A DNA stretch of 62,273 bases from a virus (IMGVR_UViG_3300031539_000026), one strand, 5' to 3'; shown: positions 19,042 through 35,062, numbered from the stretch's first letter. Notes: generated by a model from the sequence alone, not told the origin. Translations and numbers: made by a program.

Positions 19042-21381
19042 TTAGCTCGCTTGCCTCACATTAAGGCTGTAAGTTTTCGACAGACATCTATATCTGACCT
19101 CGTCCGCGCAGTTATGAACAATGACCCCGTTGACTAAGACAAAGCAGTGGGTTAGATGTGCATCCAGGCAGTAAACGTCTGAAAAACCTGCTTGTTCAAC
19201 TCGCTTGACGGCCAAGCTTCCCACCGCAACGGCAGGAGCAGGTTTTGTTTGTATAATATTTACTAACGACAAAGATTTTTCCGCATACAATACATTTGCG
19301 CTCGATGTTATCTGCCCCTGTTTTTCTGCGATATGCAGACTTGCAATTATTCGAGCAGTAAAGCGAGCGAATGCCGCCGATAAACTCTTTGCCACAATTC
19401 CGGCAGTTTTTATCGACTTTTCTATGCAAAGCCTCATGGCAGTGCTTTTGATATTGCTGTTTGTGCCAGTCAATACCTTCTTTGCTCCCGTGCCATATCC
19501 GGGCCGCTTCGCGAGCTTTTGATACATCCTCGTTGCAATCGCCCTGAGCATGATGCTTTTGAATATGTTTACTCTGTTGAATAATTTCGAGATTGTCGAT
19601 GTCGTTATTTGTTCTGTCGCCGTCGATATGGTGGACGCTAAAACCTTTTGGGATTGTTCCGTGATGATATTCCCATACTTTGCGATGAAGTCTGACACCT
19701 TTGTTCTGGTAATAGTATCCGCACAAATAATATGGCTTACCTTGAAATTCTTGTCGTCTGGCTGATATGATTTCGACTTCCATTCCTTAGCCTCTTTCCA
19801 TTGGTTATTGGCTGTCAATATTTTATGATCACCAGTGCATATTATAAACGAATCATCCTCAAAAGTAATGCGAAATACTTCTATATTTTTCCTCGTTAAT
19901 TTGCAGTTTTTGTATTCAGTCCAATAGCCACCCGCTGTCAAAACTAAACCTTCAGTTCCTACTAATTCTCGTATTGGAAAATTTCCTTTTGAGGTTACAA
20001 TGAGTGTGTCACCGTGCAAACAGTGATCCTCGGCGGCGCTATCGACATCGTCAGCCTGGCGTTTGTCTCTCGGAAGGACCGGAACCGTTCTTATGAATTG
20101 CCGGCATGTGTCGAACACATAAAACCCGGGACCTTCCCTGCTGATAGAGTTTTTTAAACGCACCCTGAGAATTTCCCAGCCGTTGATCCTGCTGCCTGGC
20201 GACTTGTTTGCCCGCGTCCACCTGATGCCCATTCTCTCCATATCGCTTGCGATACAATTTCCGTTCTCAACTGTGAATATCTCGGTATCAGCCGGGCCGG
20301 GATTAACATTTCTGCCGAGTGCTCTTTCGTATTCACGTATTTTTCTCGCAATTTCGGTAGGAATTTCGCGAGTGCCCTCGTTTGGCTTACCAGTCCAGCC
20401 GTAAATCTCCGCTATGCGAAATAGGTCTCCCCGCTGCGTTGCTCTAAGTGAACCATCATTCAACTTGACATCGCAGCCATCAGACTCCGCCCAAAACCCG
20501 ACAGAATAGGGTCTGCTGCTGCCCCTATCGAAAGACCTGTCAATCTTCCACGTCGCCGGTATCTCGAAGGGCGCAACGATATGAACCTTGCTGTCCCAAA
20601 CATCGTCGAACATTCCTCCGGCTACGATATCCCAGTCACCTTCGAGCCATGCGGCGCGCCTTGCCCCTGTCTGAGATCTCAGCATGTTCACGTAAGCCGG
20701 ATCGTTTTGCAGGACAATCAAATTCTCCCAAATCGTTCCATGTATCGCAACCCTCTCCGTGCCATCTTCGTCCAATATGACAACTTCCCTCGGGGCCGGA
20801 TCTACAAACCGAGCTTTCACCCAGTTGTGACCGACGCCATAAGGATTGCAACTGGCCCTGTAATGGTGAGGAACGTTGGGATCCGACGACCTGCAGACCG
20901 TTCGCATTGTCATGTAAAGCTCATCGTCGGGCCACAAAGTCAATTCATCCCATCCGATCCAGGGGTATTCGTGGCCGTGATAATTCCAGTAGTCGTCTAT
21001 GTTCCTGGCGTAGCGAAACAGGAGCTGCTCGCCGTCCGGGAATATCCACCTGTGACTTGACCCGTTGTATATAGCTCCCGGAAAGATTTGATAAAAAAAC
21101 CGCTTGGATTTGATCTCAATTTCTTCCAGGTCCGGATACTGCAAGCGAAACAGGATCCCACGCCAGGCAGGGCCGTAACCCCTGCCCACGAACTGAGCAT
21201 AATCCATCAATAGCGCATCGGTCTTGCCCGGCCCTCTCGTACCTTCGTAAAGGCACTCGAAAATCGGGCATGAAAGAACTCTTTGCTGGCTTCCTGGGAG
21301 CGGAGACCAGACAACGTTTAATTTTTCTTTTCCTGCCCGCCCGGCTCTTCTACTTTTACGTTTTGACTTTGTTTTAACCAT
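19042..21381 (-). CDS. terL: Terminase large subunit, interrupted by an intein
   Basis: Walker A is GTRGPGKTD. After removing residues C495-N798 (full-ORF numbering), the nuclease-end motif reads DVDSAAEDH/CADEVRYRC. Start taken at MVKTKSK (21381). Confidence 0.9.
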   Translation of the reverse strand: MVKTKSKRKSRRAGRAGKEKLNVVWSPLPGSQQRVLSCPIFECLYEGTRGPGKTDALLMDYAQFVGRGYGPAWRGILFRLQYPDLEEIEIKSKRFFYQIFPGAIYNGSSHRWIFPDGEQLLFRYARNIDDYWNYHGHEYPWIGWDELTLWPDDELYMTMRTVCRSSDPNVPHHYRASCNPYGVGHNWVKARFVDPAPREVVILDEDGTERVAIHGTIWENLIVLQNDPAYVNMLRSQTGARRAAWLEGDWDIVAGGMFDDVWDSKVHIVAPFEIPATWKIDRSFDRGSSRPYSVGFWAESDGCDVKLNDGSLRATQRGDLFRIAEIYGWTGKPNEGTREIPTEIARKIREYERALGRNVNPGPADTEIFTVENGNCIASDMERMGIRWTRANKSPGSRINGWEILRVRLKNSISREGPGFYVFDTCRQFIRTVPVLPRDKRQADDVDSAAEDHCLHGDTLIVTSKGNFPIRELVGTEGLVLTAGGYWTEYKNCKLTRKNIEVFRITFEDDSFIICTGDHKILTANNQWKEAKEWKSKSYQPDDKNFKVSHIICADTITRTKVSDFIAKYGNIITEQSQKVLASTISTATEQITTSTISKLFNRVNIFKSIMLRAIATRMYQKLAKRPGYGTGAKKVLTGTNSNIKSTAMRLCIEKSIKTAGIVAKSLSAAFARFTARIIASLHIAEKQGQITSSANVLYAEKSLSLVNIIQTKPAPAVAVGSLAVKRVEQAGFSDVYCLDAHLTHCFVLVNGVIVHNCADEVRYRCLSKTYSLNVRQAS
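19111..20022 (-). mobile_element. Intein (304 aa) in TerL
   Basis: N-terminal CLHGDTLIV, block B TGDHKILT, C-terminal VYCLDA..HCFVLVNGVIVHN followed by +1 Cys. Confidence 0.85.
19196..19783 (-). CDS. HNH (HNH_3-type) homing endonuclease, encoded out of frame inside the intein
   Basis: LHRKVWEYHHGTIPKGFSVHHIDGDRTNNDIDNLEII plus C-terminal Cys pairs. It has its own ATG with AAGAGG..AAGGA upstream. Its frame is offset from terL. Confidence 0.8.
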   Translation of the reverse strand: MEVEIISARRQEFQGKPYYLCGYYYQNKGVRLHRKVWEYHHGTIPKGFSVHHIDGDRTNNDIDNLEIIQQSKHIQKHHAQGDCNEDVSKAREAARIWHGSKEGIDWHKQQYQKHCHEALHRKVDKNCRNCGKEFIGGIRSLYCSNNCKSAYRRKTGADNIERKCIVCGKIFVVSKYYTNKTCSCRCGGKLGRQAS

Positions 21382-21869
21382 TCTTCCTTGCTCATCGGAG
21401 GCGCCACCACTAACACGCCGGCGTTCTTTATCTCGCCGCTGTGCTTGATATTTTGAGTGTTCTTCCAGTTGTCCGGATCGCGGTTTGTAGTCCAGAATAT
21501 ACACGCTGCCGTGTCCGGCGGTACCTGCTTTGTGGTTTTCCTTATCACCCTTCTTTGAGTTAGCGGCTGCCCAGTCTGATTCTTCTGTTGTGCCCCGGTG
21601 TCTGTTATCTCCGTATGAATCTCGTCGTATTCGTAGCCGGTAGCCCGTTTATGCAGGGCATTTACTACCAAAGCAGTGGCGTCCAGGGCTCCTTTTTTTA
21701 TCATGTCCCGAAATACCCGAAATTCCTTCTTGTACCTATCCCATGCTGATCTACCTACGCCCAAGCTTTTTGCTATACTTTTCTCTGTATGCCCACTCCG
21801 CAGGAACCCTTTTATGACCTCAAAATTAGGCTCGACGTGGGTATGATATTTTGACTTCCTGCCTGCCAT
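21318..21869 (-). CDS. terS: Terminase small subunit
   Basis: HTH-like SIAKSLGVGRSAWDRYKK, then ACIFWTTNRDPDNWKN. Start at 21869 is coupled to the upstream stop (TAATG). Confidence 0.7.
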   Translation of the reverse strand: MAGRKSKYHTHVEPNFEVIKGFLRSGHTEKSIAKSLGVGRSAWDRYKKEFRVFRDMIKKGALDATALVVNALHKRATGYEYDEIHTEITDTGAQQKNQTGQPLTQRRVIRKTTKQVPPDTAACIFWTTNRDPDNWKNTQNIKHSGEIKNAGVLVVAPPMSKEEWLKQSQNVKVEEPGGQEKKN

Positions 21870-22069
21870 TACTCGAACGCCCTCCGCAGACCGAACAGCC
21901 TTGTCGTTTGCCATTCATCGAGACTGTCTGCACTCTTTTTCAGTTGCTTTTTCTGAGCGTTCGTCTTAGGTTCGATTTGCAGAATAAGCCCCATCGCCTG
22001 GCCCGCCAGGTTCTCTACCTGCTCGACCAAACAGATGTTGACATTCGGATTGTTGCCGTTCTCTGCCAT
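21869..22069 (-). CDS. Small hypothetical protein
   Basis: 66-aa ORF, translationally coupled to terS. Confidence 0.4.
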   Translation of the reverse strand: MAENGNNPNVNICLVEQVENLAGQAMGLILQIEPKTNAQKKQLKKSADSLDEWQTTRLFGLRRAFE

Positions 22070-22988: not shown

Positions 22989-23121
22989 GTCTTGTCTTGT
23001 CTGGTCCCGTCTGGTCCCGTCGAGTCGCGTCGAGTCGCGTCGAGTCGCGTCGAGTCGAGTCGCATCGGGTCCCGTCAAGTCGCGTCCAGTCGCGTTATGT
23101 TGCGTCAGGTCGGGTCGCGTC
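22989..23121. repeat. NNGTC pentanucleotide array B (~27 units)
   Basis: GTC every 5 nt from 22989 to 23119. 24 exact GTC. Includes (gagtcgcgtc)x3. Confidence 0.9.
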
Positions 23122-23686: not shown

Positions 23687-23737
23687 CTTTCTTTCCTTTC
23701 TTAAATAAAAGTGTGTTGTCTTGAATAAAAAATTCTT

Positions 23738-23825
23738 GTCTTGTCGCGTCCTGTCCTGTCGAGTCCCGTCGAGTGTAGTCATGTCGCGTCCAGTCGTGTC
23801 AAGTCCGGTCAAGTCTAATCATGTT
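23738..23825. repeat. NNGTC pentanucleotide array C (~18 units)
   Basis: GTC in phase from 23738 to 23813. 15 exact GTC. Confidence 0.9.
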
Positions 23826-23854: not shown

Positions 23855-23937
23855 GTCTTGTCGCATCATATCACGTCCCATCCCGTCCGGTCGAATCCCG
23901 TCGTGTCCAGTCGCGTCATGTCGAGTCAGGTCATGTC
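23855..23937. repeat. NNGTC pentanucleotide array D (~17 units)
   Basis: GTC/ATC in phase from 23855 to 23935. 13 exact GTC. Confidence 0.9.
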
Positions 23938-23976
23938 GAGCTAATTTCGTTTTCTGCGCCCTCCAAAAAAAGGCTC

Positions 23977-34168: not shown

Positions 34169-35062
34169 TTATTCGTTCAATGCCGCATGACGTCTCGCGT
34201 ACTCTATGGGCTGCTCTATTTCCTCAAAAACCAGATGCCCACACTTGGGGCAGGGCGGCCTGGGCGGCGACATTTCATAACCGCAACCCTTACACTCATG
34301 CCATTTCACTAATGGGCCCCTGAGTTTGATTATCCCCGCCTCGGCAATATCACGGTGCCCGCGGTCCTCGGCCTCCTGTTTTTCGATTCTCTTTTGAAGT
34401 TTAAGCTGAAATCGCTGCTTTTTCGTCCGCTCTGCTCGGCGTCGCCGGCAGGTCTTTTTGAGATTGCGGATTGCTTTTTTCCTTTGGCCCGGATTGTTCT
34501 TTCGCATCAGGTTAATGAGGCCGCCGCGGTCGACCATGACCAGGTTCTCCGGACCATCATCCATCGAATCGCCGTTGATGTGAGCCACCAGCTTGCCTTT
34601 GGGAATGGGGCCGTTTTCTTTTTCCCAGAGATATTGAGCGTATGAAATCCATCGATGCTTTCCCTGGTCCTTGCCGGATATTTTGATGCGGCGATATTGT
34701 TTGCCGTTTTTGCTTTTGACAAGGACGGCCCCGACTTCCTGATGGTTTGCCGGCAAGTGGCCTTTTTTGAACTCTGTTGCCGGCGAGTAGTGCATACCTT
34801 TGACGTTCTTGTTCCAGGTCTTATGGCCCTTCTTGAAACAGGTATGCTCGTTGCCGCGTGACATGTGTCGTATGGCGATTTGTCTATATTGCTCCTTCGA
34901 CAATCGCGTATAGATGGCCCTCATTAAAGTTTTGTAGGAGCAATGATATTCACGCATCAGGTTGTCTATGATCACAGGGGTTGTTTTGAGGCGATTGACT
35001 ATCACGTCCGCATCATCCATGACTTTATCGGCGGTTCCTCTATATCCTTTGTAAGTTCCCAT
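34169..35062 (-). CDS. HNH (HNH_3-type) homing endonuclease with C-terminal Zn ribbon
   Basis: YAQYLWEKENGPIPKGKLVAHINGDSMDDGPENLVMV; CKGCG...CPKCG. Confidence 0.75.
   Translation of the reverse strand: MGTYKGYRGTADKVMDDADVIVNRLKTTPVIIDNLMREYHCSYKTLMRAIYTRLSKEQYRQIAIRHMSRGNEHTCFKKGHKTWNKNVKGMHYSPATEFKKGHLPANHQEVGAVLVKSKNGKQYRRIKISGKDQGKHRWISYAQYLWEKENGPIPKGKLVAHINGDSMDDGPENLVMVDRGGLINLMRKNNPGQRKKAIRNLKKTCRRRRAERTKKQRFQLKLQKRIEKQEAEDRGHRDIAEAGIIKLRGPLVKWHECKGCGYEMSPPRPPCPKCGHLVFEEIEQPIEYARRHAALNE

Follow-up and report, generated by a model that had tools for sequence, protein, structure and literature searches.

An HNH gene overprinted in reading frame 3 on a predicted class 1 intein within a phage terL gene

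The terL gene of the virus IMGVR_UViG_3300031539_000026, which encodes the terminase large subunit (TerL), is interrupted by an intein, and the endonuclease slot of this intein holds a complete open reading frame (ORF) for an HNH protein, on the same strand and in another reading frame, with the host frame open throughout. In this study, we analyzed the locus and its relatives and found an arrangement that points to a splicing element and a separately translated homing endonuclease sharing the same DNA. The window is the whole 62,273-nt stretch, and coordinates are counted from its first letter; terL, its parts, the HNH gene, and the signals of the HNH gene all lie on the minus strand. The terL ORF is open from 19042 to 21504 (820 aa), and its product matches the PHROG terminase large subunit with an E value of 1e-28. 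M42, at 21381, is likely the true start of TerL, as it matches the start of the intein-less relative L090 (MVKTK..), and it delimits a precursor gene at 19042 to 21381 with a product of 779 aa; the mature protein left after splicing would be 475 aa. The 41 codons 5' of M42 are also open, and the ORF there overlaps the end of a terS-like gene (21318 to 21914) upstream. The gene call in the database for the window contig (P0001, 721 aa) puts the start at M100, which lies downstream of the Walker A motif GTRGPGKT; this call is probably too short.

The N-extein (20023 to 21381) ends in ..DDVDSAAEDH, a conserved motif of the TerL nuclease domain, at which intein-less homologues read ..AEDH|IAD.. 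It is followed by the intein (19111 to 20022), which is 304 aa long and spans ORF residues 495 to 798, and then by the C-extein (CADEVRYRCLSKTYSLNVRQAS) and stop codon (19042 to 19110), which align with ..IADDVRYRCLAKTYSLSVRQAS* of L090. The insertion is precise and in frame at a conserved host site, the L090 allele without it reading ..AEDH|IAD.. where the window has ..AEDH|[intein]|CAD.. The intein is of class 1 (Cys1 ... His-Asn / Cys+1), and the TerL ORF matches the Pfam family Intein_splicing with 37.3 bits against a cut-off of 35.8. Its N-terminal splicing (Hint) domain (19771 to 20022, intein residues 1 to 84) has the hallmark Cys1 of block A (CLHGDT) together with block B (TGDH), both of which are conserved in more than 40 relatives. 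The C-terminal splicing domain (19111 to 19227, intein residues 266 to 304) contains blocks F and G (..VKRVEQAGFSDVYCLDAHLTHCFVLVNGVIVHN), reading DVYCL..HCFVLVNGVIVHN with a His-Asn end and then the +1 Cys, as in class 1 inteins. This domain is conserved in all overprinted loci and is the counterpart of the separately translated C-terminal intein half (IntC; M-KVKS..VYN/DL..HNF..G.IVHN) of split relatives. Between the two splicing domains, intein residues 85 to 265 form a linker (19228 to 19770) that is the terL-frame reading of the HNH DNA. The G+C content of the N-terminal splicing domain is 36%, compared with 52% for the N-extein and 48% for the whole window, which is consistent with a foreign origin of the intein. 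The host gene is unbroken, with no stop after the N-terminal intein half (IntN) and no separate start for IntC, and the locus is thus not a naturally split intein.

The HNH_3 homing-endonuclease gene lies at 19196 to 19783 and encodes 195 aa. Its ATG falls on codon position 3 of the terL frame, which places it in frame 3 relative to terL, that is, the terL frame shifted by -1 (offset 2). The endonuclease is not translated in frame as part of the intein, and this sets the locus apart from canonical bifunctional inteins. The best Pfam family of the ORF is HNH_3 (PF13392; E = 2e-17, 62.9 bits, cut-off 24.8), and PF01844 was not reported among its Pfam matches; over its full length it matches phrog_15471, a group of stand-alone phage HNH proteins, with an E value of 2e-40. 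The protein combines an I-HmuI-like catalytic domain with two CxxC...CxxxC zinc ribbons, and the homing endonuclease I-HmuI (PDB 1U3E) is its nearest solved relative (phmmer E = 0.004). Residues H51, H52, N60, N64, and H73 and the zinc-binding cysteines are invariant among 33 HNH homologues, and the AlphaFold model of the HNH frame has a mean pLDDT (predicted local distance difference test) score of 90.4. The HNH stop lies within ..VKRVE.., the first strand of the C-terminal splicing domain. The initial annotation had described all of this anatomy, from the 304-aa intein at ..AAEDH/C and its splicing blocks to the HNH_3 ORF with a ribosome-binding site and ATG and the position of its stop at the start of the C-terminal splicing domain, and its sequence statements hold. 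The last 12 nt of the HNH ORF (CAAGCGAGTTGA, 19196 to 19207) are identical to the final 12 nt of L090 terL, and HNH and TerL both finish ..RQAS* (window 19196 to 19207 and 19042 to 19056; L090 7411 to 7425). This sharing could be a trace of how HNH was captured. However, the same bases encode the conserved intein strand VKRVE, which occurs in the relative L009, whose TerL ends differently; the sharing is possibly due to chance.

Across the overlap, the terL frame has no stop codon and the third frame has 12. The initial annotation estimated the chance of 196 open codons at roughly 1 in 10^4. For random sequence of matching composition, we obtained about 5e-6, and random sequence is in any case the wrong null model because the overlap DNA also encodes HNH. 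The proper null holds the HNH protein fixed and only reshuffles or redraws synonymous codons. Under this null, the terL frame is open in 0.3 to 1.6% of trials, with 2.6 to 4.8 stops expected, and the other alternative frame would hold about 15 to 17 stops. The open terL frame at the window locus by itself is therefore suggestive and amounts to modest evidence. Over the homologues, the evidence is decisive: the 43 overprinted HNH genes that are distinct have 0 terL-frame stops against 2.15 expected by within-gene synonymous shuffling, whereas 26 non-overprinted HNH genes have 2 to 13 stops in the corresponding frame. The same stop expectations show that frame 3 is the sole workable relation between the two genes, as a host frame at +1 of HNH expects about 2 to 5 stops versus about 15 in the other frame.

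Substitution patterns separate the roles of the two frames. The window aligns with its intein-bearing relatives L008 (HNH 87% identical) and L009 (71%) with zero gaps across the intein. Substitutions in the exteins and in both splicing domains are concentrated at codon position 3 of terL (for example, 10, 4, and 50 or 5, 4, and 19 at positions 1, 2, and 3), while in the overlap they are concentrated at terL position 2, which is HNH position 3 (14, 47, and 18; 31, 81, and 41). Amino acid identity of the overlap to L008 and L009 is 68% and 45% in the terL frame versus 87% and 71% in the HNH frame. The ratio of nonsynonymous to synonymous substitution rates (dN/dS) is 0.14 and 0.12 for the HNH frame, at divergences up to a dS of about 1.5, and about 1.5 for the terL frame of the overlap; it is 0.03 to 0.19 for the splicing domains, with the N-terminal splicing domain in the terL frame at 0.09 to 0.13. 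AlphaFold predicts intein residues 1 to 84 and 266 to 304 with confidence (pLDDT 76 to 90; C-terminal part 81 to 86) and linker residues 85 to 265 at a pLDDT of about 30. Judged by its substitutions, the HNH frame is under purifying selection at the amino acid level and is a functional protein-coding gene. The terL reading of the overlap is a spacer, constrained only to stay open, free of indels, and in register, because a stop or frameshift in the overlap would kill TerL. The earlier proposal that both frames are under selection thus stands in full for the HNH frame, and for the terL frame only in this restricted sense.

The arrangement recurs widely. A scan of IMG/VR found 549 relatives, and we classified the arrangement in the best 80. 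Fifty of these 80 loci have zero terL-frame stops, with ORFs of 690 to 870 aa where the contig holds the whole gene; the remaining 30 have 2 to 15 terL-frame stops, and the third frame always has many, at all loci. The overprinted loci that are complete enough to align (about 44 to 45) all have blocks A, B, F, and G, and the overprinted inteins share one site in the TerL nuclease domain, ..(E)DH|C.. and ..HN|C.D..RY. A tblastn search of GenBank phages with HNH found homologues within the annotated long terL genes of four phages with unrelated hosts, namely Acinetobacter phage Highwayman, Clostridium phage phiCDHM19, Tetrasphaera phage TJE1, and a Rhodobacteraceae phage. All four have HNH at offset 2 and flanked by an intein, in a terL free of internal stops, and the TerL proteins belong to different Pfam families (Terminase_3, Terminase_6N, and T7-type). 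The initial annotation had named stops in the terL frame of homologues as an observation that would speak against its reading, and none occur among the contiguous homologues. Its central claim, that an HNH gene of free-standing type lies over the linker region of an unbroken intein and that both frames are kept, is thereby extended from one contig to four cultured phages and 50 of the 80 IMG/VR loci. No in-frame version of the HNH family was found in the 80 IMG/VR loci or among 45 database proteins (167 to 274 aa), the protein search being word-limited and its negative result weak as evidence.

The distribution of the intein and the sequence of the window terL point to mobility. The best 120 TerL homologues are mostly intein-less and about 470 aa long. 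One of them, P0007 (474 aa), is 87% identical to the window exteins and is encoded on L090, a contig that is collinear with the window at 72 to 92% nucleotide identity in aligned blocks, is missing exactly the 912-bp intein, and comes from the same metagenome as the intein-bearing L008. Its empty site reads ..GAGGACCAT|ATT GCA GAT.. We found no HNH homologue anywhere in the 13 kb of L090, and the collinear relatives L089 to L091 have terL and no HNH homologue. Sliding identity and informative sites delimit an L008-like patch, at approximately 19070 to 20480, in an otherwise L090-like terL. A comparison of the window, L090, and L008 showed that the patch takes in the intein with some 460 bp of extein upstream and some 40 bp downstream; outside it, the window terL is L090-like, both from the 5' end to about 20480 and from about 19070 on. 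Between the window and L009, the intein is more alike than the exteins. The patch appears to be a homing-type gene conversion tract, as expected from double-strand-break repair with coconversion of the flanks.

The window also contains a second, free-standing ORF of 297 aa (34169 to 35062, minus strand) with an HNH_3-like segment (..ENGPIPKGKLVAHINGDSMDDGPENLVMV..), which matches the intein HNH in tblastn with an E value of 4e-5. In this ORF, Ala replaces the usual first His of the HH pair, and there is a C-terminal CxxC..CxxC motif. Arrays with a 5-nt period (GTCNN: GTCGC GTCGA GTCCC GTCAA ..) lie at 23004 to 23121, 23734 to 23824, and 23890 to 23940, and this region self-matches at several offsets against L090; the arrays may be protein-binding iterons.

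Relatives of the HNH gene occur in other associations with terL. The Yuavirus phages PAE1, SN1, and FBPa53 have a TerL related to that of the window and carry an HNH homologue (44 to 47% identity) 55 bp past an intein-less terL (..AEDH IAD..), and these free-standing genes have 1 to 4 stops in the frame that is open in the window. Among the 30 non-open loci of the best 80 in IMG/VR, 20 are split-intein terL genes (L011, L020, L026 to L028, L035, L039, L041, L042, L048, L061, L062, L069, L072, L073, L081, L082, L084, and L085 among them). In these, the N-terminal part of TerL and an IntN of about 100 aa end in a stop, an HNH ORF follows, and a Shine-Dalgarno motif and start codon then lead into a short IntC (about 35 to 45 aa, e.g., MKVKSIKK..VYDLEV..HNF..VVVHN/C) fused to the C-extein. 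We found no split terL inteins with HNH in the literature searchable here. The 931-aa TerL homologue P0096 has two inteins, a LAGLIDADG-containing one in the ATPase domain and a mini-intein of about 129 aa at exactly the site used in the window, which starts with CLHGDT and has an N-domain 33% identical to that of the window. P0048 has a shortened mini-intein 5 codons upstream of the window's site, with a linker remnant retained. A different intein, of 305 aa and likewise five codons upstream (..DDVD|C...TN|TDAEDH..), is found in L092 (335 to 2509; P0013), and it contains an ORF with HNH_3 and zinc-ribbon features in frame 3, a second overprinted case. The suggestion in the initial annotation that the window represents an intermediate between an endonuclease-containing intein and a split intein with a free-standing endonuclease is directly supported by the split relatives, the free-standing HNH genes of Yuavirus, and the mini-intein at the same site in P0096.

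How the HNH protein would be made bears on the interpretation of the locus. A Shine-Dalgarno-like AGAGG (19791 to 19795) lies 7 nt upstream of the HNH ATG, and two codons before this ATG there is an HNH-frame TAA (19787 to 19789); L008 and L009 share both elements. Most overprinted relatives have an ATG a few codons past an upstream HNH-frame stop, a Shine-Dalgarno motif accompanies the ATG in most, and many have strong motifs, such as AAAGGAGG, TAGGAGG, and CGGAGGA. An alternative, raised in the initial annotation, is that programmed -1 ribosomal frameshifting fuses the N-extein and the N-terminal intein domain to HNH, with no start of its own in use. The HNH frame is indeed at -1 relative to terL, the direction that programmed frameshifting most often takes in phages, and it is open far upstream in some GC-rich relatives, such as TJE1. 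However, such a reading would have to pass the TAA, a scan of the terL frame for X_XXY_YYZ slippery heptamers found none in the window and none conserved among 45 relatives, HNH is plainly a separate ORF in the split-intein relatives, and the fusion product would be without the C-terminal splicing domain. Independent internal initiation is the best-supported route of HNH synthesis on these sequence features, because the ATG and Shine-Dalgarno motif recur, an HNH-frame stop lies just upstream of the ATG, and slippery heptamers show no conservation; we regard frameshifting as very unlikely. We give equally little credence to the idea that the HNH ORF is a dead relic, in which case selection would act on the open terL frame alone and the still intact HNH frame would be a recent leftover. 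Some relatives do have a premature HNH-frame stop, and the mini-inteins show that HNH can be lost, but the low dN/dS of the HNH frame holds over divergences to a dS of about 1.5, its catalytic and zinc-binding residues are invariant in the 33 homologues, and it folds confidently in the model.

The window is a single metagenomic contig, and in-frame HNH inteins are known, which together could suggest that the frame offset is a sequencing or assembly artifact of two compensating indels and that HNH is really an in-frame domain of the intein. This is hardly conceivable given that four cultured phages, each sequenced independently, and 50 IMG/VR loci from many samples show this same offset, that the window aligns without gaps to L008 and L009, that HNH possesses separate start signals, with a stop close upstream, and that no in-frame fusion appears among the 45 database homologues. 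A different function for HNH also has to be weighed, namely, that it is a terminase accessory nuclease for packaging, of the HK97 gp74 class, placed by or in terL for coexpression. HNH proteins that assist terminases were reportedly the subject of work by Kala et al. in 2014. Members of the HNH family are almost always found beside or within terL, and terminase-assisting HNH proteins are known (cited in PMC11855218). Yet TerL matched 141 phage records, 79 of them from Pseudomonas phages, and HNH matched only 4 Pseudomonas phage records; L089 to L091 have terL without any HNH; and HNH_3 proteins resembling I-HmuI form a family typical of homing enzymes. In addition, the gene travels with the intein in the gene conversion patch, and copies decay into mini-inteins. 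We consider a packaging role unlikely.

We hold it to be highly probable that the window contains a composite selfish element in the essential terL gene, consisting of a splicing-competent class 1 intein and a separate HNH homing-endonuclease gene in frame 3 of its endonuclease slot. In the mechanism that we propose for this composite element, the terL mRNA would be translated straight through, and a linker of about 180 residues, predicted to lack structure, would join the two Hint halves that flank it. The Hint domain would then excise the 304-aa insert and join ..AEDH to CADEVRY.. to give active TerL, as suggested by the presence of all catalytic residues and the essential nature of the gene. 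Ribosomes would also initiate at the internal Shine-Dalgarno motif and ATG (19783) to produce a free 195-aa I-HmuI-like HNH protein, for which the signals and the purifying selection argue. During coinfection, HNH may nick or cut an intein-less terL near ..GAGGACCAT|ATTGCAGAT.., a step to which the gene conversion patch and the sporadic distribution of the intein point indirectly. Repair would copy the intein, the HNH gene, and flanking extein into the cut allele, consistent with the gene conversion tract and the empty-site allele, and the intein, by interrupting the target site, would protect the carrier allele. As for its origin, the element most likely arose when a free-standing terL-associated HNH gene joined a mini-intein, and this state would interconvert with split-intein forms.

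The relatives lead us to lean slightly toward a broader reading, in which the window represents a large family, as yet undescribed, of mobile elements that target terL across bacterial phyla, with one I-HmuI-like HNH gene and one Hint domain found in every stage of association and the stages repeatedly interconverted. The stages meant are HNH beside an intein-less terL, HNH between split intein halves, a contiguous intein overprinted with HNH, and a mini-intein left once HNH is lost.

Several points weigh against these readings. Splicing, HNH expression, and the target specificity of HNH are all deduced from sequence, and the patch in terL indicates recombination that included the intein without showing that the window HNH made the break. 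A Foldseek search of PDB with the whole HNH model returned nothing at an E value below 0.001, and I-HmuI ranked fourth, with an E value of 0.6 and a TM-score of 0.27 to 0.30. An internal promoter scan for HNH gave a count no higher than in shuffled sequence; one weak sigma-70-like site upstream of HNH (19848 to 19820) was not used as evidence. Not every overprinted HNH copy appears to be active, as L010 (7 to 597) and L076 (2973 to 3740) each have a single premature HNH-frame stop about 19 to 27 codons in (..GEVY*LCG.. and ..SIQR*KEKNYYLCG..), with the remainder of the HNH frame intact and terL open. These stops may reflect early endonuclease decay, an alternative downstream start, or sequencing error. 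As for the family, the tree of HNH proteins implies at least 11 changes among three states, a figure that is indicative only, as it comes from a rough neighbor-joining tree without support values.

An arrangement of this kind was first reported in 2025. In a survey of actinophage inteins, Gosselin, Arsenault, and Gogarten (bioRxiv 2025 preprint) described inteins with out-of-frame endonucleases, including, within the TerL of Gordonia DE1 phages, an endonuclease VII-like enzyme "in reading frame 3," and proposed the capture of free-standing endonuclease genes. The window shares with those inteins a contiguous TerL intein, a His-Me-finger nuclease in frame 3, and an open host frame that reads as unstructured sequence. 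It differs in the nuclease, which is HNH_3 with two zinc ribbons rather than endonuclease VII-like (IPR004211), and the window HNH has no BLASTP similarity to the frame-3 ORF of Keitabear, one of their examples. The insertion sites also differ, being in the TerL ATPase domain in Keitabear (..VLVM|C...HN|TRWHEDD) and in the nuclease-domain motif in the window (..EDH|C.D..RY). The window family is found in phages of Proteobacteria, Firmicutes, and others and in metagenomic phages, whereas the survey of Gosselin et al. covered PhagesDB actinophages. A tblastn search with the HNH of TJE1, itself an actinophage, showed no Gordonia or Mycobacterium phage among the 40 best matches displayed or the ten commonest organism names, with 30 further records unlisted. 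Further literature searches found nothing on the HNH_3 family in TerL inteins. Thus, the kind of arrangement is already known from actinophages, and the window family, its breadth, and its split and free-standing relatives are undescribed in the searchable literature. A second parallel is provided by the fractured genes of Dassa et al. (2009; PMC2677866), in which split inteins have a free-standing homing-endonuclease gene between their halves. As in those genes, the endonuclease gene of the window has its own signals, sits between the splicing domains, and overlaps with its 3' end the start of the C-terminal intein domain, and the 20 split loci among the relatives share the fractured-gene layout, with HNH. 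Unlike in the fractured genes, the host frame of the window is unbroken, so splicing would occur in cis; in addition, the endonucleases of Dassa et al. are GIY-YIG or Vsr-like, whereas that of the window is HNH.

Canonical bifunctional inteins with an in-frame LAGLIDADG or HNH endonuclease have this domain in the same position as the window, between blocks B and F, and the presumed homing cycle is also the same, from empty site through invasion and endonuclease decay to mini-intein. In contrast to canonical inteins, the window endonuclease would be a separate protein from another frame, and the in-frame translation of its DNA is without a fold. Collaborative homing, in which a group I intron cooperates with a neighboring free-standing endonuclease gene, was reportedly described in 2009 both by Bonocora and Shub and by Zeng et al. 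The window resembles that system in pairing an element that splices and disrupts the target with an endonuclease that is translated separately and directed against the uninterrupted allele, and its HNH region resembles the intron-encoded I-HmuI. It differs from intron homing in that it is the protein that would be spliced, which obliges the embedded gene to keep the host frame open, a constraint that introns do not impose. A further likeness is to the ShiLan domain, an out-of-frame HNH in an insertion of a phage DNA methylase (Arsenault et al., 2025; PMC11855218) described by the laboratory that also surveyed the actinophage inteins. There, too, an HNH ORF is concealed in another frame of an insertion that is free of host-frame stops. 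The ShiLan insertion lacks splicing domains, and the host protein is presumed to retain it; its HNH ORF has a GTG start with no detectable ribosome-binding site; by contrast, the window HNH is flanked by a complete Hint domain and has an ATG and a Shine-Dalgarno motif.

Collectively, these observations provide sequence-level support, within one homologous family, for the idea that inteins gain endonucleases by capturing free-standing homing-endonuclease genes and that such captures also tie split inteins to contiguous ones; earlier, the stages came from unrelated systems. They show how selection acts on an overprinted part of an essential gene, with one frame conserved as protein and the other as "no stops, no indels," and the stop expectations explain the recurrence of frame 3. 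Homing endonucleases within inteins are under-counted because gene callers miss such embedded genes, the window HNH itself being missing from a catalogue of 5.8 billion proteins. With an intein-less allele, an intein-bearing allele, and a recombinant all available from nature, the homing of a noncanonical intein becomes directly testable, and the related natural split terL inteins could serve as protein ligation tools. If the broader reading is true, the family would represent a living series for the gain and loss of homing endonucleases by inteins (the "splicing-first" model) and a natural source of new split inteins.

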